In this document: positions 82-9,351 of the stretch, piece by piece
How positions within the stretch are numbered: the first letter of the stretch is position 1
How the letters are laid out: each line of letters begins with the position of its first letter
NCBI GenBank assembly: GCA_944387545.1
Contig: CALXFE010000003.1
Coordinates: forward strand, 12,309 to 76,308
Direction of reading: 5' to 3'
Origin: an uncultured Clostridia bacterium
GTDB lineage: Bacteria; Bacillota; Clostridia; TANB77; CAG-508
Length of the DNA stretch: 64,000 bases
Notes under the pieces: model-generated
Seen by the model: the letters and a program-made list of their open reading frames with translations, nothing else
What the model was told of the DNA's origin: nothing
The model's database searches: none
Translations under genes and position numbers: made by a program

Positions 82-801
82 CTAAATCAATTTTTCTGCC
101 AAAGCTAATTGCTCTTGATTTAAATTAAAATCTTGTCCGTTATTTTTAATCAAATTATGTAGATTTTCTATAACTCTTGCTTGATTAATTATTTTTTCTA
201 ATGGCGCTAAATTATTTAATGCTTGTTCTATTTTATTATACTCTTTTTCCATTGCTCCAAAATCTTTATTATTAAAATTCTGTTTCCAATTATTCATATA
301 TTTTTCCATATTTTCTAATCCAATATTTTGTTCTCTAAATTTTTCTTCTATATTATTTTCTACACTATTTAATATAATATCTTTCCCTTGTTTAATTATA
401 TTCGTAATATTATAGTCTAATAATCCTTTTTGATTCACTTTATCAACAACAGTATCCAATAATGAGGAAATTCCATCAATTAAGCCTCCCGTCTCAATTG
501 CACTTTGCATTTGTGAAACATTTTCAAAATTGCCTGTAAATATTCCTATTGCACTTTTTCCTACATCTATTGCATCATCTATTGTTTTTGTAATTCCATC
601 TTTTAATCCATAATTTAATAAATTATCTTTTATATTAATAATTTGTTCATCTATAAAATCTGGTAATAAAGCTCTTATTCCAATATCTATAGCTGTATTT
701 ATTGTTTTTCCCAATGTAGTTTCTAAAAAGCTTTTTTGCTCTTCGTTCCTATTTATTTCATTATTTAAATTTATTTCATTTTCTATTTTATTTATATCCA
801 T
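82..801 (-). CDS. Hypothetical soluble protein, 239 aa, Asn/Ile/Glu-rich
   Basis: Intact ORF with an AAGGTGG ribosome-binding site about 5 nt upstream of the ATG at 801. I recognise no family. It has visibly more G+C than the tract upstream of it. Confidence 0.55.
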   Translation of the reverse strand: MDINKIENEINLNNEINRNEEQKSFLETTLGKTINTAIDIGIRALLPDFIDEQIINIKDNLLNYGLKDGITKTIDDAIDVGKSAIGIFTGNFENVSQMQSAIETGGLIDGISSLLDTVVDKVNQKGLLDYNITNIIKQGKDIILNSVENNIEEKFREQNIGLENMEKYMNNWKQNFNNKDFGAMEKEYNKIEQALNNLAPLEKIINQARVIENLHNLIKNNGQDFNLNQEQLALAEKLI

Positions 802-1210
802 ATACCACCTTGTACAATATAATTATTTTTAAAATTTATTATATTATATTTTCCTTTCTTCATTGATTATTTTATTTTTTATAATTTCGATTTTTTATAA
901 AAATTATTTGTTTTATTTTTTACTAAAAAAATTAATTTATTTATTATTTATTTTTAGTCTTTATTTTTTATTTATTTTTCAAATTCTAAATAATTTTTTA
1001 ATTAATTTTTTTATTAAATTTATTATATTATTTATATATATTTTTTGTTTATTTCTTTATAACTCATGAAATATTTTTTATTGATTTGAAATTTTTTAAT
1101 TTCTTTATGTCTTTTTTAATTCGTATTTATCTGACAAATTTTTGTTGTTAATAAAATCACTCTCCTTTATTCTTAATCTTGTATTTTTATTTTTGTTAAA
1201 TATCTTTTAA

Positions 1211-4200
1211 ATTTTATTTTTGATTTATGTATACTTTATTTTTGTCTCAAACTAATTTTTACTTTTTTATTCATTTTCCTTTTTTTCTTATTTACGTAGT
1301 CTTTATTTCCACTTTTTGTACAAATTTTTTTATTTGTTTTTGAACTTTTTTTCATTTCTTTTTATAAAATTTATTATATTGGTAAACCTCTTTTGGGGTA
1401 ATTTTTAATCATTTATAATTTACAAATTTAGGTTTTATTTTTGAATTTTCTCTTTTTAATTTATGTTTACTTTTGTTTTTTGTATTCTTTTTTATGAATT
1501 TTTTATTGTTATGTATTTACATTTTTTACCATATTTTTATGTGTTTGTTTTTAACTTTTAAATTATTTTTATATTATTTTTATTTTCTTTTTATTATAAT
1601 TCAATTTATTATTTTTTTAATTTATTATCTTTTAATTTATTATTTTTTAATTTATTATTTATTTTATTATTTAAATAATTATTATATTTATAAAATCTAT
1701 TTATTTTATTATAATTTTTAATGAGTATATATAATTTTTTTATTATTTTTTATAAATTATATATTAATTATTTTTATTTTTAAGGCTATTTAATAGATTT
1801 TAGATATTTTTTATTTAATTAAATATTTTTTCTATTTTTTTAATATCAAAAAGTACTTATTATTTTTTATACTTTTTATTTTTTTATTATTATTTTTATA
1901 ATTTTTTTTATTTTTATTTTTAATTATAAATTTTATTTTTTTATTAAGCTTAAAATTAATAAATTAATTTCTCATTTATTTTATATAATTTTTAGTTTAA
2001 CTTATTTTATCAAAAACAATTTTTCTTTTATTTTTATATTCATCTTTTTCATATTTCAAATTCTTCTTTTTGCCTTTGTCTTTTCTTCCTTTAATTTATA
2101 TTACGTTTTTTATATCTACCTTCTTTTTAAAAAGATTTTTAAACTTATTTTCTTTCTAACTTTTATCAGATTTCCTTTCAATTTTATTTTTGCTTTATGT
2201 TTACTATGCTTTTTTAGTTGTCTTTGTCATCCATTTTTTATTCATTTTGACTTTTTTCTTATTTGCCTAGTTTTCAATCCACTTTTTTTAGCAATCTTTT
2301 TGTATTTTAAAATTACTTTTTGTATTTATTTCTTATAAAATGTATTATATTGGTAAACCTCCTATTTATAATTTTAATTGATCACTTTTTATCAATTTTA
2401 GATTTTTCTTTCAAATTATTCTTTTTGAATTTATGTTTACTTTTGGTTTTTATTTCTTTTTTACTAATTTTTTCTTTTTATACTTTTTAGTTTATTTTAT
2501 ATATTTTTTTATCTTTCTTTTTATTTTTTTGTCTTTAATTTTTTATTAATTTATCTTTTTTTTTCAATTTTTATTACTTAATTTTTTTATACATCATTTA
2601 TTTATTTTTATATTTTTTATTTTTTATTTATTTTTAATAAAAAAAAATATTTTAGTTGTTTTTTTTGTTTTTATTAATAAATTATCTTTAATAAATTTTT
2701 ATATCATTTATTATATATCTGATCATTCATCGTTTAATATTTTATTAATAATATTTATTTATTAATTTATTATTCAATTAATTCTTTTATTTATAGAATC
2801 TAATTATTTCATTATATTTTTTTATTAATTATTTATTTAATTATGTATTATATATTTTTATTATAATTTTTTAGAAAAAAATTTTTATTATTTATTAATA
2901 ATCTTTATTTTATTTAATTAATTATTATATTAATAATTTTTTAATATAAAATTAATTTTTTTATATTAAATAAATAAAAATAATTACTTTATTTTTTTTA
3001 TTTCTTTTAATATTTGGGGAAATTGATTTATTTTATAGAAATGATAATTTCTAATTATATATATATCTATTTTACATTTTATTTATATCCTTCTTTCTTT
3101 TTACTTTTTTCCATTTTATACATTTGTTTTTTTGTATTATTAATTTTATTTCTTAAAAGTATCTATGTCATTACTATCTTTTTTCTTTAAATTTCTTTCA
3201 ATTTTATTTTATATTTTATGTTTACTGTGCTTTTTTTCTATCTTTACTATCTCTTTTATATTCATTTTGACTTTTTTCTTATTTGCCTAGTCTTTAATCA
3301 ATCTTTTTTTATCAATTTTTTGTATTTTAAATTTACTTTTTGTATTTATCGGTTATAAAATTTTTTATATTGGTAAACTGCCTTTTTGTAATTATAATTG
3401 ATTAATTTTTCTCAAATTTAGATTTTTACTTTCAAATTATCTCTTAAAAATTTATGTTTACTTTTGTTTTCTAAATTCTTTCGGTATCTTTTTTCTTTGT
3501 TATGTTTTTACATTTTTTACCATATTTTATATTTCTTTCTATTTTTTTGTCTTTAATTCTATATTAGTTTATCCTTTTTATTTTTATGTTTTAATTTACT
3601 AATTTTATTCATTTATTAATTATTATTTTTTAATTTTATATTTTTATTTTTTTAAATTTAAAAAAATTCTTTAATTAATTCTCATTTATTTATTTTTATT
3701 AATAAATTTTATTTATTATTATAAATTATTAATATCAATTTTTATAATTTTTTTATTTTTATTTATATATCTAATTATTTATTTATAATATTTTATTAAT
3801 AATCTTTTTTTATTTATATTTATTAATTTATTTGGTGTAATCCACTTATTTTTTTATTAAATCCATTTATTTTATTCTAATTTATTCTTAATCATTTAAT
3901 TATTTTTTTATATTTTATAATTATTTATTATTTTTTTATTTTAACTATATTTATATTATTATTTTTTTATTTTAACTATATTTATATTATTATTTTTTTA
4001 TTCAAAAATATTTTTATTTAATTAAATATTTTTTTTTATTCTTTTAATTTTTTAGTATTTTTTAATAAAAAAATATTTTAGTTAAATTTTTTATTTTTTA
4101 TAATAAATTTTATTTTCTAATTTATTATTTATTTATAATTTTTTTCTTCTCAATTTTTTATTTTAGTTTTTATTACTAAATTATTTTTTTATATATTAAT

Positions 4201-4625
4201 ATTATCTATTATTTGTTAATTTATTTTTTACTTTTATTTCACTTCTTCTTTCTTTTTTGTTCTTTCTTTTTATACTTTTGTCTTTATATTATTACTTTTT
4301 ATTCTCAATATAATTTTTTACTTTTTGTTTTTATTAGCTTATTCTTCAATTTTTATTTTAATTTTATGTTTACTATATTTTTTTCTTATTTTTTTCTATC
4401 TTTTTTTATTCATTTTTACTTTTTCTTTATTTGCGTAGTTTTATTTCTACTTTTTATATTACTTTTTTTGTATTTTATTTTTATATTTTGTTTTTATTTG
4501 ATATAAAATTTATTATATTGGTAAACTTCCACTTTATAATTTTAATTGATAAATATTTTCTAAGTTTAGATTTTCTTTTGTTGTTTATACCTCTTTTATT
4601 TATGTTTACTTTTGTTTTTTGAATT
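1211..4625. repeat. Four ~1-kb direct repeats in an ORF-free, ultra-AT-rich tract
   Basis: Conserved ~275-bp cores lie at about 1211-1485, 2181-2455, 3201-3475 and 4349-4625. Each contains TATATTGGTAAAC (1376, 2346, 3366, 4514) and two copies of TTATGT(T/A)TAC. The anchor spacing is about 970, 1020 and 1148 bp. Confidence 0.85.
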
Positions 4626-4820
4626 GTTTTTGATAAAATTTTTTCATTTATTCTTTTAGATTGTTATATTATTTATATGTACTTTCTATTATCTTTTTTA
4701 TTACAAATTTTATTTTCATATTATTTACTAATTAATTTTTTATTTAAAATTTTTATTATTTAATTTTTTTATTATTTGCTTTTTTATTTATTTTTAATTA
4801 AATTTAAAATCTTTTATTTT

Positions 4821-5861
4821 TTAATTTAAATTAATTATTTTTATTTTTTTAAATTTATTTTTTAATAATCTTTTATAAAAATATTTTGATAAATTATTTT
4901 TTATGTAATTATTTAATATTAAATATGTATTTATATTTTCTTTTTTTAATTTATTTAATTTTAATATATTTTTTTTATTATTTTCTAAAGTTATTATATT
5001 TATATATTTGGCCTGTATTGGTATTTTATTTATATTTTTATAAAATCCTTGAATATTAAATATTATATAATCATTATTTTTATTATATTTTCTAATTAAT
5101 TTCTTTAATATTCTTTTTTTTATTAAATTATTTTTATTCTTTAATACATTGTTTATATTTTCTATTTCTTTTATTTTATTATTTATTCTTTTTTCTTTTA
5201 TTTTAATTTTTAAATTTAATTTGTATATTTTTTCTGTTTTATTTATTTTTATTATTTTTCTATTTATTGTTTTATTATTTTTTTCTTTTTTTATATTTAT
5301 TTTTAAATTAATTATAATTATATTTTTATTTTTTATAATTAATTTTTTTAGTATAATTAATTTTATTATATCTTTATCAATTTTATTTTCTCCAAATAGA
5401 AATATCATGTTGTTTTTATTTTTTATTAAATTTTTATTTTTATAATTTATCATATTTTTTAATTTGATTATATTTATCTTTTTTTTTCTATTGATATTTT
5501 GATTATTAATAAAATATTTTTTTTCTTTTAAATTTTTAATTAATTTATAAATACTAAATATATTATTATAATAAATATCTATCATTTTTAATTTTATTAA
5601 ATCTTTTTCTATTTTTTTATTTTCTAATATGATAATTATTTTTATTTTTTTGTTTGTCTTCTTTATATTTTCTATTAATTTAATTAAATTTATTTCTCCA
5701 GGAATTTTTTCACTAATAATAATTACATCTATATTTTTATATTTTTTTAATATATCAATAATTGCTTCTTTATATAAAATATTTTTATTTTCTGTTATTG
5801 TATTTTTTATTATTTTTTTTAATATTTTTTCATTATTTATAGCAGTTATTATATTAGGCAT
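4821..5861 (-). CDS. Lys/Ile/Asn-rich hypothetical protein, 346 aa, possibly a receiver-like N-terminus plus a degenerate ParA/MinD-like half
   Basis: A 346-codon open frame in DNA almost devoid of G/C, which is unlikely by chance. It overlaps the end of the upstream VirB4-like gene by 8 nt, suggesting translational coupling. The expected Walker A position reads FGENKIDKD, so no intact P-loop is present. Confidence 0.5.
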   Translation of the reverse strand: MPNIITAINNEKILKKIIKNTITENKNILYKEAIIDILKKYKNIDVIIISEKIPGEINLIKLIENIKKTNKKIKIIIILENKKIEKDLIKLKMIDIYYNNIFSIYKLIKNLKEKKYFINNQNINRKKKINIIKLKNMINYKNKNLIKNKNNMIFLFGENKIDKDIIKLIILKKLIIKNKNIIIINLKINIKKEKNNKTINRKIIKINKTEKIYKLNLKIKIKEKRINNKIKEIENINNVLKNKNNLIKKRILKKLIRKYNKNNDYIIFNIQGFYKNINKIPIQAKYINIITLENNKKNILKLNKLKKENINTYLILNNYIKNNLSKYFYKRLLKNKFKKIKIINLN

Positions 5862-7695
5862 CCTTTTTTTCTCCCTTTATTATTTCGTATTCATCATCAG
5901 AACATTCTATTTTTGTTAATATATGATCTTCTCCTACAAACATCAAACATTCTCCTCTTTTTAATGATTTTATTTCTATCTTTTCTTTTTCTGATAAATT
6001 TGCATATTCTGATAATACTTTTATATTTTCTTCTTCTAATGCAAAAAAGGTTTTTATACTAGAATTATTTAATATACTTTTTCCATAGATTCCTTCTTCT
6101 AAGCTAAACAAATCGGATATATCTTGTGTTATTGCAACACTACTGCCACCATATTTTCTTATTGTTTTAAATATTTTATAGATAAAACTTGCTACATTTT
6201 TATTTGAAGTTACACCTATTAATCTCCATATTTCATCAAGATATATTGCCTTTTTTTCTTTTCTATTTTCTTTTATTTTATCCCAAAAAATATCTGTAAA
6301 TAAATACATGCCATATTTTAGATTTTCTTCTCCTAATTCATATATATCTGCAATAATTAATTCATTTTTTAATTCTATATTTGTATAATTATTAAAAAAT
6401 TTCATTGATCCTTTTACAAATGGAATTAATTTTATTGAGAATTTTTCTGTTCTTTTATCTTTTCGTAAAATATTATATAAATCTTCTAATATAGGCATAT
6501 CTTTTTTATTTTTAAATATATTTTTTTTATTTTCTTTTTTATATAAAGATTTATCATCAAAATTAATCTTTTTTTCATTATATGTTTCAATTAATTTTTC
6601 TTCTATTAATGCTTTATCTTCTTCATTTAATTCTCCAAAAATTAAATGAAAAAAACCTATTAATTTTCCTATTTTTGTTGCTAAATATCCATTTTCTCCA
6701 TCTTCAATGCTTTCTTTTCTGATTTCCAATATATTTATATATGTATTTGAATTTGGACCTATAATAATTCTAGTACCTTTTAATTTTTCACTTAAACTAA
6801 CATATTCACGTTCCGGATCAATAATATATTGCTTTATTCCCATCAATCTGTATCGTAATATCAATAATTTTGTGTAAAAAGATTTTCCTGCACCGCTTGT
6901 CCCAAATATACATATATTAGCATTTTTATATTTTTCTGTATCATACCTATCTATAAAAACGATAGAATTGTTATAAATATTTGTTCCTATAAATATACCT
7001 TCATTATCAAATATTGATGATGAAACAAATGGATAGGTAGCCACTAGACTAGATGTAAGTATATTTCTTTTAGCTACATTTTTTATTAATTTATGATTTT
7101 CCATTAAGGGTAAGCAAGCTTTAAATGTTTCTTCTTCTCTAAAATTTGCTCTTCTTGTTTGCAATCCTTTGCTTTGCGAAATACCCTCTATTTTATTTAA
7201 TAAATATTCTAATTCTTTTATGTTCTCTGCATATACTAATAAATATATATACACGTAATACATTTCTTCATTATTTACTTGCATTTCTTTTCTAATATAT
7301 TTTGCATCTCCATATATGGATGTTGCTATATCTATATCTTGTCTATTTTCATTATTACTTTTTACTTCTAATCCCACATTTCCTATATGATAAGTTAATT
7401 CTTTTATAACTCTATAGGAATCTTGTTTTTCATAGAAAATAGATATATTTACATTGATATTACTTTCTATAATATTTTTTAATATTATATCTGTTTGTTC
7501 TCTATAATAATCTACTATTATAATCCCTGCATAATATAAATTGTCAATTTCTATATATTTAGGATTTTGCATATTTATATATGAAGGTGAAATTTTATCT
7601 TTTTCAAAAATTGTACCTTCATACAATTTTAAATTTTCTTCTTTATTTTTATTGATTATTTCTTTTATAATATTTCTACTCCTCCTTTTGATCAT
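5854..7695 (-). CDS. VirB4/TrsE-family T4SS ATPase, second copy, 613 aa
   Basis: Walker A GTSGAGKSF and Walker B AIYLDEIWRL are present. The layout parallels the VirB4-like protein at 31018-32964. Confidence 0.8.
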   Translation of the reverse strand: MIKRRSRNIIKEIINKNKEENLKLYEGTIFEKDKISPSYINMQNPKYIEIDNLYYAGIIIVDYYREQTDIILKNIIESNINVNISIFYEKQDSYRVIKELTYHIGNVGLEVKSNNENRQDIDIATSIYGDAKYIRKEMQVNNEEMYYVYIYLLVYAENIKELEYLLNKIEGISQSKGLQTRRANFREEETFKACLPLMENHKLIKNVAKRNILTSSLVATYPFVSSSIFDNEGIFIGTNIYNNSIVFIDRYDTEKYKNANICIFGTSGAGKSFYTKLLILRYRLMGIKQYIIDPEREYVSLSEKLKGTRIIIGPNSNTYINILEIRKESIEDGENGYLATKIGKLIGFFHLIFGELNEEDKALIEEKLIETYNEKKINFDDKSLYKKENKKNIFKNKKDMPILEDLYNILRKDKRTEKFSIKLIPFVKGSMKFFNNYTNIELKNELIIADIYELGEENLKYGMYLFTDIFWDKIKENRKEKKAIYLDEIWRLIGVTSNKNVASFIYKIFKTIRKYGGSSVAITQDISDLFSLEEGIYGKSILNNSSIKTFFALEEENIKVLSEYANLSEKEKIEIKSLKRGECLMFVGEDHILTKIECSDDEYEIIKGEKKDA

Positions 7696-8260
7696 AATTT
7701 TTATTTAAATATTTTTTTGTATTCAAAAATGAAAAAAAGATTTTTAATATTTCTTTTTTTTCATCAATAACAATTACTTTATTTCCACATCTTGATAAAC
7801 ATTCTTTTATTTTTAAATATTTTTCATTTAATTCTTGCTTTATAAATTCATAATTTTTTTCTTTTTTGTTGATTGGATTATTTTTTATTATGATATAAAA
7901 TTTTTTAGATGCTGATTTTTTATTAATATTTAGATTAGAAATATAATTAATATATTTTTCAGCTAATTTTTTTAAATGTTTATTTTCTTTTTTTAATAAA
8001 TTATTTTTTATTTTTGAAATATGATGACTTAAATCTTCTTTATTACTTTGAATTAAAATTTGAATATTAAAATTACAAGTTTTAAAAAAAATTTTATATG
8101 AATTTAAAATTGCTTCTTTTTCTAAATCAGATTTTAAATTATAATTTATTGGTATTATTTCTAAAATTTTTATAAGACTACTATTCTTTAATTCTATAAT
8201 ACCATCTTTAAAAATTTGTTTTATTGGTATCCATTCTTGTACACTTTTTTTATTTATTTT
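7676..8260 (-). CDS. Unlisted ORF of ~190 codons, paralogous to the soluble N-terminal region of the 29845-31005 protein, with no canonical start codon
   Basis: My own translation of the minus strand is open from the TAA at 8263-8261 to the TAG at 7678-7676. It reads ...WIPIKQIFKDGIIELKNSSLIKILEIIPINYNLKSDLEKEAILNSYKIFFKTCNFNIQILIQSNKEDL.... This aligns with FDKIEDNMIIRKKGRQYIMAIECQGINYDLMSGLEKNSVEQGFLQFLNTLRYPIQLYIQTRTVNL. The ORF overlaps the VirB4-like start by 20 nt. The only candidate start near the RBS is ATA at 8257. Confidence 0.6.
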   Translation of the reverse strand, partial: KINKKSVQEWIPIKQIFKDGIIELKNSSLIKILEIIPINYNLKSDLEKEAILNSYKIFFKTCNFNIQILIQSNKEDLSHHISKIKNNLLKKENKHLKKLAEKYINYISNLNINKKSASKKFYIIIKNNPINKKEKNYEFIKQELNEKYLKIKECLSRCGNKVIVIDEKKEILKIFFSFLNTKKYLNKNYDQKEE

Positions 8261-8282
8261 TTATCACACTCCTTTGAAAGCA

Positions 8283-8311
8283 ATTTTACATTATTTTACA
8301 TTACTTGTCAA
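8283..8311 (-). promoter_or_regulatory. Sigma-70/SigA-type promoter for the small-ORF/VirB4-2 operon
   Basis: On the minus strand: TTGACA (8311-8306), a 17-nt spacer, then TAAAAT (8288-8283). An AAAGGAG RBS follows at about 8275-8269. Confidence 0.55.
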
Positions 8312-8892
8312 GAAAAACATTTTGACAAATTTCGACTTTCTTTTTCCTTATTTCAGGTTTACCATTTTTTTCTTTTGTTTCTTTTTCCAAAATATTATAT
8401 CTTCTTTCTGTTATTTTTTCATTTTTCATTTCTTTTTTTCTGCTTTTTTCTTTACTTTTATGTATACTATTTTTTTTATTTATTATCTCTTTCTTAATAT
8501 TTTTTGTTTTTCCTTTATTGTATATATGCGTAATTATTTTTTTAATTACTTTTTTTACAAAACTGTCTAATTTTGTTTTCTAACAAATTACTTTTTATAA
8601 TTTTATTTCTTGTATTTTTTATAATATATTTGATCTTTTATTTTTTCCTTTTCTCTTTTCTTTAATATTTTTTCTTCTGCTTTTGCTTAACATAATTTAA
8701 AAATAATATTACATTTGATAAATTATAATTCTGTCATAACTTTATTGCTTTTTACAATATTTGTGATTTTTCTTTTTTCTATCTCACTTATTTTATTTGT
8801 TTTTTTATTTTTATTTTTTACTATTTTAATATTAGTTTTTATCTATCACTATTTTTATTCATTAATTTTATTTATTCTTGTTTTTTATTTTT

Positions 8893-8970
8893 ATATTATT
8901 ATTTATTTATATTATTATTTATTTATATTATTATTTATTTATATTATTATTTATTTATATTTATTATTTA
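8893..8970. repeat. 16-bp tandem repeat ATATTATTATTTATTT, about 4.8 copies
   Basis: Four perfect consecutive units read directly from the sequence, followed by a partial copy. Confidence 0.8.
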
Positions 8971-9290
8971 TTGCTTTATTATTTTTTATTTTTTTGAATA
9001 TTTTATTTTTTTTTGTACATAATAATATTATAAAGTTAATAATAGTTAAGAAAAATAATAATATTTTTTAATTAATTTATTATTATTTGTGTGCGATATA
9101 TTATTTTATTTTTTATTATAATTTATCGCTTATAAAAATATATTATTCTTTGTAGTTTTTTATTTATTTTTTATTATATTTATTTGTTTGTGGCAAAGTT
9201 ATATATAATATATTTTATTTTTTATTTTTCATATAAAATATGATAATTAAAAATTGTATATTAATTTAATTATTATTAGCTTTATTGATT

Positions 9291-9323
9291 AATGGCAGAT
9301 AATAATAAATATTATCTGCCATT
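9291..9323. terminator. 13-bp-stem hairpin downstream of gyrB
   Basis: AATGGCAGATAAT (9291-9303) pairs with ATTATCTGCCATT (9311-9323) around a 7-nt loop. The hairpin sits 29 nt past the gyrB stop. Confidence 0.6.
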
Positions 9324-9351
9324 AAATTTGTAAAAATAAATTTATATATTT

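Follow-up and report, generated by a model that had tools for sequence, protein, structure and literature searches.

We analysed a 64-kb stretch of DNA from an uncultured Clostridia bacterium (the window), in which an array free of open reading frames (ORFs; 802..4820, minus strand) lies between two genes about 10 kb from oriC. Downstream of the array is a conserved gene of 239 codons (239-aa gene; 82..801, minus strand), whose protein has ~5000 homologues and which in array-free relatives directly adjoins the gene found here on the other side of the array (4821..5861, minus strand; 346 aa, ~11% GC), a homologue of ParA/MinD-type ATPases with a receiver-like N-terminal domain, hereafter the parent gene. 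Further upstream, in the same block and on the same strand, follow the C-terminal portion of a VirB4-like ATPase of the CD1110 family (5854..7695) and a TraC/TrsD-like N-terminal VirB4 module (7690..8247), for which the window contains no start codon (ATG, GTG or TTG). Pfam and NCBIfam matches of the parent gene were below their cut-offs, among them the Pfam CbiA match. A profile built from 16 orthologues matched PF-32 (2e-7), MinD (3e-7), Soj (2e-4) and ParA (to 2e-3), and 15 orthologues carry a deviant Walker A motif, GNYKSGKS/T (in the form GNYKSGKST); judged from these profiles and motifs, the family is one of ParA/MinD (SIMIBI) ATPases. In the resident gene of the window Walker A, LGIK and SLHII are degenerate, and in the clade to which the window belongs the resident gene is without all three motifs in 8/8 species.

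The array comprises four direct repeats (units) with start-to-start distances of 971, 1020 and 1148 bp and a conserved core of ~300 bp each. An nhmmer profile of the core found exactly four copies in the 64 kb, all on the minus strand (E 1e-49 to 1e-62), bearing out the four ~1-kb repeats with a conserved core of the preliminary description. Counted from the 239-aa gene, the cores, with the order c1-a-b-Met-c2, lie at 1191..1499 (unit 1; E 1e-51 and alignment), 2161..2469 (unit 2; E 1e-62 and alignment), 3181..3490 (unit 3; E 1e-61 and alignment) and, closest to the parent gene, 4329..4638 (unit 4; E 6e-49, identical in three Logan contigs), all on the minus strand. They are separated by indel-prone, low-complexity AT DNA with short tandem repeats, at 1500..2160 between units 2 and 1, 2470..3180 between units 3 and 2, and 3491..4328 between units 4 and 3, where short-read contigs break at a 31-bp tandem repeat (3899-4002). 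The GC content of the array is ~10-12%, its minus strand is A-rich (sense strand ~62% A), and coding capacity has been lost: stops occur throughout, the longest minus-strand ORF in 802-4820 has 39 aa, agreeing with the earlier statement that none reaches 60 aa, and those on the plus strand are F/L/I-rich.

Within the cores, all on the minus strand, block a (GGTTTACCAATATAATA in unit 1) lies at 1372..1388, 2343..2359, 3363..3379 and 4511..4527 in units 1 to 4, and block b at 1287..1299 (CTACGTAAATAAG), 2258..2270 and 3278..3290 (both CTAGGCAAATAAG) and 4426..4438 (CTACGCAAATAAA). A conserved ATGAAT follows at 1269..1274, 2240..2245, 3260..3265 and 4408..4413, and then block c2 (AGTATACATAAA in unit 1) at 1224..1235, 2194..2205, 3215..3226 and 4363..4374. 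A second copy of c together with ~50 nt, termed c1, is located 83 nt upstream of a in unit 1 (1460..1471) and at 2430..2441, 3451..3462 and 4599..4610 in the other units. Motif scans confirmed the blocks of the preliminary description: GGTTTACCAATATAAWA has four matches with at most one mismatch, confined to the units; AGTAWACATAAA has nine exact matches, eight of them in the units (two per unit, exactly 236 bp apart) and the ninth at 8457-8468; and CAAATAAGAAAAAAGTCAAAATGAAT matches three units at up to three mismatches, with a chance expectation of 0. A partial fifth copy had also been proposed at ~8330-8400, where the core profile was not significant; the box at 8457-8468, by contrast, ends a real fifth b-c module (TTACGCA...65 nt...AGTATACATAAA; 8457..8533, minus strand) upstream of the TraC-like/VirB4 operon.

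The array is real DNA. Positions 3973-6031 of the window are covered by three independent Logan contigs at 100% identity, the same four units are present in strain L011, which is 98% related, and in a sister species all unit positions agree between four independently made assemblies (L005-L008), which excludes the concern that the repeats collapse as an assembly artefact. An exact scan of GTDB genomes with the 25-nt form of block a returned no matches, the species representative being without the exact string. Since the array breaks short-read assemblies, its copy number in metagenome-assembled genomes is probably under-reported.

Origin of the array units

Each conserved block has a counterpart among the codons of intact parent genes in related loci. 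From this correspondence, block a is read as the relic of the Walker B codons (V-D-I-G-N-N), block b as that of L-G-I-K, the ATG as that of an internal Met and block c as that of S-L-H-I-I (AGTAAACATAAA maps onto these codons), and the block after c as that of N-K-Y-Y-F-N. The blocks have the same order and spacing in the units as in intact genes, in every one of which LGIK and SLHII are 22 codons apart, equal to the b-to-c spacing of 64-66 nt. In the anchored sequences GTTGACATTGGAAATAAT turns into GTTTACCAATATAATA, with like changes at further sites. In unit 3 the frame of the ATGAAT reads M-(12 codons)-S-K-H-K-I, comparable to MFKTDFKNRDKKKSLHII in the intact gene of locus L035, and unit 4 retains the same 13-codon distance to S-K-H-K-I. 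The ATGAAT is read as this internal Met rather than as a start codon, and the peptides read from it are variable in length, as first described, with 12, 13, 18 and 5 codons in units 1 to 4; the view that conservation acts on DNA or RNA rather than on peptides was correct.

In less decayed relatives the units can be aligned with the 3′ half of their own parent gene. We used composition-corrected nhmmer for these comparisons in place of blastn, which, because of the A-rich composition, reported ~60% identity everywhere with meaningless E-values. The four units of locus L041, in which ~100 codons are still open, matched at E 1e-54 to 1e-66, those of L069 at E 1e-45 and the four of L035 at E 1e-6 to 1e-12, and five units of L053 were aligned as well. 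A profile of intact genes only produced 37 extra-genic matches in 14 loci, and in tblastn searches against the corresponding gaps of 36 relatives the ParA-like protein was the only match. Decayed paralogues of the 239-aa protein or of other local proteins were considered too, and searching the array by tblastn with 16 local proteins gave no match.

For the window itself, gene-derived nhmmer profiles run for up to six iterations gave no significant direct alignment of the units with intact genes, nhmmer detected no similarity between the units and the resident gene, and matrices trained outside the clade (226-column and informative-column) ranked the true position of unit 2 first, not significantly. 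Iterative nhmmer joined the window units to those of loci L013, L015, L017 and L018, and a matrix trained outside the clade scored the L015 units (3-25 of 500 null arrays). A composite scan of the 64 kb found the series a..b..c four times and b..c five times, every match lying in this locus on the minus strand; no more than 3e-4 are expected per array. All units are arranged head-to-tail on the minus strand directly downstream of the gene at 4821-5861, and the same holds in every array-bearing related locus. The copy origin of the window's units is argued from the order of the blocks, from spacing and position, and through the intermediates that form a chain to them.

We consider it probable, on this combined evidence, that the array consists of four non-coding copies, arranged in tandem, of part of the adjacent ParA/MinD-type gene, namely its 3′ half, with blocks that now probably act as DNA signals. 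A segment from about Walker B to the gene end, together with the downstream junction, would have been duplicated repeatedly in tandem in the space separating the ATPase gene from the 239-aa gene, likely by slippage or unequal recombination, the DNA there being very AT-rich. The frames of the copies would then have been disrupted by extreme AT mutation pressure, and the 3′ parts would have become indel-prone low-complexity spacers. This duplication history is seen in the relatives, and we infer it for the window. Among the possibilities raised at the outset, decayed promoter-plus-gene cassettes came closest: decayed gene copies they appear to be, although of the 3′ half of a gene rather than of a promoter with its gene.

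RNA, promoter and mobile-element readings

Tandem small-RNA arrays occur in other Firmicutes, such as Listeria LhrC1-4, and each unit could accordingly be read as a small non-coding RNA gene of a tandem family, with the blocks as promoter and seed sequences. The shared orientation of the conserved cores and, in the spacers of locus L009, AT-only hairpins followed by T-runs would be in keeping with such genes. The cores, however, matched nothing in Rfam, whether at the gathering threshold or at E<=1, and their folding z-scores (-0.84 and -1.10 for the two strands) were no better than those of shuffled sequences. RNAalifold on the four-core alignment gave -2.1 kcal/mol with essentially no covariation, which does not favour structure, so the proposed RNA family is left without support from database, folding or alignment. 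The sense strand is moreover mostly A, promoter-like hexamers occur at chance (102 found vs 100.8 expected in the region), and every conserved block is accounted for as a codon relic in gene order, making an RNA family highly improbable.

Other functional assignments fared similarly. The same count of promoter-like sites speaks against a sigma-70 promoter, which has its -35 and -10 hexamers 16-18 bp apart. Block c taken as a -35 element showed no enrichment of -10 partners in the window clade, good ones occurring in 17% of units and 15% of controls there, and in 25% vs 14% outside the clade. A MITE or IS remnant was rejected, the inverted repeats being matches between low-complexity spacers, none of which frames the cores. 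Nor do c1 and c2 resemble target-site duplications: the similarity of these 12-nt repeats extends to ~50 nt and they are identical between units. A literature search for similar arrays found nothing relevant.

Constraint on the blocks and its possible cause

Across 45 related loci of uncultured gut Clostridia that span the region, between 0 and ~8 units occupy the same site; in every spanning locus the same gene pair flanks the gap, whose length is -7 to 4839 bp. The organism of the window is present in samples such as the ERR4096412-56 series and the BRZ_GL sample ERZ24773349. Arrays are widespread in uncultured gut Clostridia of chicken, rabbit, mouse, human and wild animals; several lineages are wholly without one, and the array is thus dispensable. 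The repeat period is 971-1148 bp in the window vs 415-1370 bp in relatives, only the spacings within units being fixed, and copy number would drift via recombination between units.

This variability would suit an array of neutral pseudogene debris, produced by slippage and duplication and functionless, whose blocks persist through youth or through re-seeding or conversion from a functional template. In L041 and L069 the units are indeed young, 74-81% identical to the gene, the spacers consist of slippage-type microrepeats, and, when close strains are compared, the cores taken whole have accumulated substitutions as fast as the spacers (2.8% vs 2.7%). A conserved donor copy elsewhere in these genomes, outside the 64 kb, may also maintain the blocks by gene conversion. 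However, there is no local template in the window clade, since the resident gene is degenerate in all eight species. Relative to L011, mismatches numbered 2/236 in the blocks, as against 30/912 in core sequence outside them (p = 0.025), a rate ~4 times slower in the blocks, and gap columns amounted to 0 in the cores vs 10% in the spacers. The positions kept are G/C, those that AT pressure should remove first. Among 19 units from five species, conservation of non-A columns is restricted to blocks a, b and c and the block that follows c. Block sequence and exact spacing, including a c1-to-c2 distance of exactly 236 bp in eight units of two species, also survive a divergence at which four-fold degenerate sites of the window species and the clade are 41-62% identical, near saturation. 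Finally, the intact genes show a fixed synonymous choice: for the Gly of LGIK, 11/12 of them use GGC, a codon whose usage elsewhere is 4-8%. Given this, we judge purely neutral debris unlikely.

Because blocks and spacing outlast saturated synonymous divergence and GGC is fixed, the constraint appears to act on the DNA, most likely through putative protein binding. Purifying selection would then maintain the relic blocks and the distances between them as DNA. The codon relics have by far outlasted what decay alone would permit, and hence probably serve as DNA signals now; the blocks were probably already dual-use cis sites within the 3′ end of the parent gene. Their most likely role would be as putative sites for a locus-specific DNA-binding protein acting on the transcription units of the VirB4/ParA-like/239-aa block; both units have modules before them on the gene strand. 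Outside the arrays we found 13 b-c modules, which either precede the VirB4 operon or follow the 239-aa gene; 12/13 are on the gene strand. The spacing between b and c falls into two classes, of 55 and 66 nt (~47-49 and 57-59 intervening nt), with almost nothing between; the difference amounts to one helical turn, and both classes could stem from one ancient 11-bp deletion. As a binding partner we considered the neighbouring Xre regulator (15832-16170 in L001), containing GQIERGER, which is present in all window-clade loci, but it also occurs in some array-free loci, and the exact pattern is absent from several array-bearing ones.

A more specific reading, tentative and less likely than not, is that the relic blocks are exapted DNA sites: Walker B, LGIK and SLHII codons of a ParA-like gene that would have doubled as binding sites while the gene was alive and, once its 3′ half had been amplified and had decayed, would have survived as a dynamic, origin-proximal array of protein-binding modules. 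Such an exapted array may be centromere-like, bound by a recombinase, or a regulatory platform for the conserved VirB4/ParA-like block in this family of uncultured gut Clostridia. If so, a cis-element array would have been built from pseudogene fragments of the gene of its own trans-acting partner.

The first two of these roles can also be taken as an explanation in their own right, the array then being a set of centromere-like or recombinase-binding sites for a ParA partner or an Xer-type enzyme that organise or rearrange origin-proximal DNA. Its position directly downstream of a ParA/MinD-family gene, the highly dynamic copy number and the helical-turn difference between the b-c spacing classes are consistent with this, as is the identity of c (AGTTTACATAA) with the reverse complement of the XerD arm of dif. 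The Gram-positive dif sequence is ACTTCCTATAATATATATTATGTAAACT (PMC11040001). A dif/Xer core site has two inverted 11-bp arms around a 6-8-bp centre, but no conserved inverted arm follows c at that distance, so there is no complete recombinase core site; dif and XerD-only sites, moreover, belong at the terminus, far from the position of this locus near oriC, and the ParA-like protein of the window clade has lost Walker A. The units, at 0.4-1.4 kb, are not short regular iterons either: iterons and sopC- or parC-like repeats measure roughly 10-50 bp and are helically phased, unlike the ~1-kb repeat period of the window. We therefore find a centromere or recombinase array very unlikely, and the resemblance of c to the XerD arm may be coincidence, the motif being explained by its S-L-H-I-I codons. 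The short relic blocks do behave like conserved DNA sites, and the iteron-like or nucleoid-organising array mentioned in the preliminary description may still apply.

The array, read as decayed gene copies, has an ordinary origin and a conserved afterlife. What appeared to be a conserved non-coding family near the replication origin would be eroded partial copies of the adjoining gene. Given so simple an origin, similar AT-rich, ORF-free repeats should first be compared with the genes that flank them in less decayed relatives, and only then should new families of RNAs or binding sites be put forward. The persistence of the blocks, together with the rare GGC codon fixed in living genes, suggests a coding sequence that doubles as a DNA signal, a second role that would be retained after the gene copy dies.

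Comparison with known systems

Arrays of silent partial-gene cassettes serve gene conversion in Neisseria (pilS), Borrelia (vls) and Anaplasma (msp2 pseudogenes). Like these, the array is made up of promoterless, 5′-less tandem partial copies beside an expressed gene and in the same orientation, and in L041 alone, with its ~100 open codons, the frames are partly open as in such cassettes. In contrast, the copies in the window are ridden with stops, their DNA is not detectably similar to that of the resident gene, the parent encodes a cytoplasmic ATPase rather than a surface antigen, and conservation is confined to blocks of 7-15 nt instead of recombination-competent stretches.

Centromere repeats beside ParA genes are known from the F plasmid, with sopC of 12 x 43 bp, and parS lies inside spo0J of B. 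subtilis. The array resembles sopC in comprising direct repeats immediately downstream of a ParA-family gene, and b and c, as putative sites in intact parent genes, recall parS as cis sites within the coding sequence of a partition gene. Unlike those of sopC, the units are 10-30 times longer and irregular, and their source appears to be the ATPase gene itself; in the window clade this ATPase is degenerate, and a ParB-like partner is only putative. With dif and XerD-only sites the array shares block c, which matches the XerD arm at 10-11/11 positions in most lineages and at 9/11 in the window, but c is without a second arm or central region and its location is origin-proximal.

Erosion of pseudogenes in AT-biased reduced genomes is familiar from Buchnera and Mycobacterium leprae. 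The array has in common with it the loss of reading frames, the drift to ~10% GC and low-complexity tracts grown by slippage; it differs in being a tandem array that recurs at one site in many of the sampled related genomes, and in short relics whose sequence and spacing outlast saturated synonymous divergence. TadZ/CpaE-type proteins, finally, combine a receiver-like domain with a MinD/ParA ATPase. No TadZ structure was among the profile matches of the parent family, whereas the parent gene has the same domain order, with a receiver-like N-terminus followed by a deviant Walker A ATPase, and likewise lies within a secretion- or pilus-like block with a VirB4-like ATPase.

Genomic setting and reproducibility of the array

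The window spans the replication-origin region of a very AT-rich genome (~25% GC, standard genetic code), with dnaA (14533–15894), dnaN, recF and gyrB (9352–11280) on the minus strand, rnpA, yidC, jag, mnmE, mnmG, rsmG, parA and parB on the plus strand from 16.5 kb, and a sign change of GC skew and AT skew near 16 kb. In a public copy of the contig (ENA ERZ24773349, BRZ_GL NODE_108), gyrA lies just past window position 1. Between gyrB and gyrA is a conserved gene block that comprises, in minus-strand order, a TraC/TrsD-like N-terminal VirB4 module (~8247–7690), the 613-aa C-part of a VirB4-like ATPase of the CD1110 family (7695–5854), a 346-aa gene (5861–4821), a 4-kb ORF-free tract and a 239-aa gene (801–82), and ends with a convergent Xre-type regulator, a 548-aa pilin-like protein and a 101-aa protein. 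In this block the VirB4-like ATPase is divided over two reading frames, and no ATG, GTG or TTG start is present within the window for its N-terminal module, which relatives encode as a separate ORF of 170–225 aa. Directly upstream of this module is the region's best sigma-70-like promoter, TTGACA-17-TAAAAT (8311–8283); the gap towards gyrB (8248–9351, minus strand) is a second AT-rich, ORF-free stretch, with a 32-bp tandem repeat at 8890–8991. A paralogous VirB4-like cluster (27684–42019, plus strand) is immediately preceded by two tRNA-Ser genes (anticodons TGA and GCT; 27244–27477, plus strand) and contains four tandem signal-peptide paralogues of ~130 aa (27684–29271), a VirB4-like ATPase (31018–32964) with 28% identity to the first, a 386-aa TraC-like protein and a 1234-aa M23-peptidase protein. 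The window showed neither a relaxase nor a coupling protein.

Within the ORF-free tract (802–4820), the four direct repeat units of the preliminary description were recovered, with cores at 1191–1499, 2161–2469, 3181–3490 and 4329–4638 and start-to-start distances of 971, 1020 and 1148 bp; a profile of the aligned cores found exactly four copies in the 64 kb, all on the minus strand (E 1e-49 to 1e-62). The motifs named there lie where reported, at a frequency far above chance; in 4/4 units the AGTAWACATAAA box has two copies at a distance of exactly 236 bp. It was also right that the array lacks a real minus-strand ORF (none >39 aa) and that the peptides starting at ATGAAT vary in length (12, 13, 18 and 5 codons). 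Other assemblies reproduce the array: three independent Logan contigs match the window exactly across 3973–6031, a strain 98% related to the window carries the same four units, and four assemblies of a sister species mutually agree on the array. Short-read contigs often end within or beside the array (all three from Logan break off at a 31-bp tandem repeat, window position 3973), and many GTDB MAG contigs begin just upstream of the 239-aa gene; because short-read contigs break here, MAG data likely under-sample array length and copy number.

The units and the 3′ half of the ATPase gene

The 239-aa protein has ~5000 homologues, and we compared 80 GTDB loci and several metagenome contigs fetched around it, the relatives being uncultured Clostridia MAGs from the guts of chicken, rabbit, mouse, human and Brazilian animals. 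The order gyrB, TraC-like, VirB4-like, 346-aa-type and 239-aa gene is conserved, and the gap between the last two ranges from −7 bp (genes overlap) to 4839 bp, holding 0 to ~8 units of 415–1370 bp each. Copy number differs among close relatives (6 versus 4, 3 versus 1, 4 versus 0), and several lineages wholly lack the array. Three short blocks recur across units, always in the same sequence: a (AGTTTAC), b ((C/T)TA(G/C)G(C/T)A, 79–90 nt past a) and c (GTWWACATA, 54–56 or 64–66 nt past b). In units of the window and of a relative (L013), a second block c with ~50 nt of its following sequence lies 83 nt upstream of a, and thus direct repeats at an exact 236-bp distance flank the a–b segment (window 1460–1471 to 1224–1235 and equivalents). 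Three relatives carry inserted Rpn/PD-(D/E)XK-like ORFs, of the recombination-promoting nuclease or transposase-like kind, at differing points of the locus (L085 8715–9761, L087 8978–9976, L082 10683–11651); in L085 and L087 the insertion falls exactly at the expected array site.

In the product of the 346-aa-type gene, a ParA/MinD-type ATPase follows a receiver-like domain; intact orthologues have 439–591 aa and a deviant Walker A (GNYKSGKS/T), and a 16-orthologue profile matches a ParA-like PF-32 protein (2e-7), MinD (3e-7), Soj (2e-4) and ParA. Searching the gap of one relative (L041) by tblastn with an intact orthologue gave four matches spaced at the unit period, with ~100 open codons (...YILVDSGNTENYKIK...NTLGIKDIEENIEIEKADKQNNNSSLHIIYNKYYFN). 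Composition-corrected nhmmer searches of each locus's gene against its own array matched the gene's 3′ half to four units in L041 (E 1e-54 to 1e-66), one in L069 (1e-45), four in L035 (1e-6 to 1e-12) and five in L053 (2e-4 to 4e-13), and a profile derived solely from 3′ coding DNA in intact genes had 37 extra-genic matches in 14 loci. For the array family as a whole, a gene-copy origin is effectively shown.

From these unit-to-gene alignments it follows that the blocks are codons. Block b is TTA GGC AT(T/A) AAA (L-G-I-K) and block c AGT TTA CAT ATA AT(A/T) (S-L-H-I-I), at a distance of 22 codons (66 nt) in all intact genes, while block a comes from the Walker-B strand, GTT GAC ATT GGA AAT AAT (V-D-I-G-N-N), decaying through GTTGACAAATATAATAG in an L053 unit to GTTTACCAATATAATA in the window. 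The conserved ATG of the units is the Met within ...QLMFK..., and AAATAAAAT after c is a remnant of AAT AAA TAT TAT TTT AAT (N-K-Y-Y-F-N).

Neither nhmmer profiles nor position matrices trained outside the clade gave a significant direct alignment between window units and intact genes. The window units are nevertheless probably decayed copies of the gene's 3′ half, and five features point there: the array shares position and orientation with those of relatives; the a..b..c composite has four matches and b..c five in 64 kb, with gene-like spacing, at this locus and on the minus strand only (≤3e-4 composite matches expected per simulated array); units 3 and 4 read in frame M-12 codons-S-K-H-K-I, compared with MFKTDFKNRDKKKSLHII in L035; an iterative nhmmer chain links the units to those of L013, L015, L017 and L018 within the clade; and L015 units score at their true positions with the out-of-clade matrix (3–25 of 500 null arrays). 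Across the relatives, the comparison shows tandem partial duplication of the 3′ half of the ATPase gene and then decay, in which the copies lost frame and eroded towards AT and slippage enlarged the spacers; the short relics probably act as DNA sites.

Probable constraint on the relics and possible roles

The resident gene (4821–5861, minus strand) is ~11% GC, yet its 346 codons are open; it reads GENKIDKD where GNYKSGKST is expected, and Walker A, LGIK and SLHII are lost in all eight window-clade species. Given this common loss and the open frame, its product may be a pseudo-ATPase selected for something else.

Several results argue against the relics being mere debris. Four-fold degenerate sites are 41–62% identical between the window species and other clade members, which is near saturation, and across 19 units of five species conservation of non-A columns is confined to a, b, c and the block that follows c. 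The two c copies are 236 bp apart in 8/8 units of two species whose spacers differ by hundreds of bp, and the intervening b–c distance is two-valued, 47–49 nt (n = 23) or 57–59 nt (n = 66), with three exceptions. Compared with a close strain (L011), gap columns make up 0 of the cores and 10% of the spacers, and mismatches number 2/236 in blocks versus 30/912 at the remaining core positions (Fisher p = 0.025; a weak short-timescale test). The LGIK Gly codon is GGC in 11/12 intact genes, against a GGC share of Gly codons of 4% in 239-aa genes and ~8% elsewhere in ParA-like genes, and this retention suggests that block b is constrained as DNA even within the living gene. Non-functional debris kept alive by gene conversion would fit the lineages without an array, the equal pace of change of whole cores and spacers between close strains, the weakness of the short-timescale test and a possible donor copy elsewhere in the genome; however, blocks and spacing are kept across near-saturated four-fold sites, and the motif loss from the resident gene leaves the window clade no local coding template, making this explanation unlikely.

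Of the partial fifth copy in the preliminary description, the box at 8457–8468 stands, as the c of a complete b–c module (TTACGCA...AGTATACATAAA, 8533–8457, minus strand) upstream of the TraC-like/VirB4 operon, whereas the 8330–8400 segment is not significant, its resemblance being limited to the tail of b and GTCGAAA. In relatives, the gap between gyrB and the TraC-like gene holds one or two b–c modules, those upstream of the operon in L050 being nearly identical to those of its own main array, and 12/13 b–c modules outside arrays lie on the gene strand. We tentatively propose, as the likeliest single role, that the short relics form a locus-specific regulatory protein-binding module in front of the block's transcription units; presence of the Xre regulator does not track arrays cleanly.

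The family of non-coding RNA genes suggested earlier did not hold up: Rfam gave no match at the gathering threshold or at E ≤ 1, folding of both strands was no better than that of shuffles (z −0.84 and −1.10), and no structure common to the four cores was found (−2.1 kcal/mol). We consider unstructured sRNA genes the most improbable reading of the units. Hexamer pairs of a promoter array were at chance level (102 found versus 100.8 expected), block c was not supported as a −35 element, and inverted repeats framing the cores, as in a mobile element, were not found. Block c matches the XerD arm of Gram-positive dif (PMC11040001), but it lacks a partner arm, and a centromere-like or recombinase-bound array is very unlikely. 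The repeat finding is real and now largely explained; while the breadth and dynamics of the array and the long survival of its codon relics are unusual, it is ordinary in kind, consisting of pseudogene fragments of a neighbouring gene.
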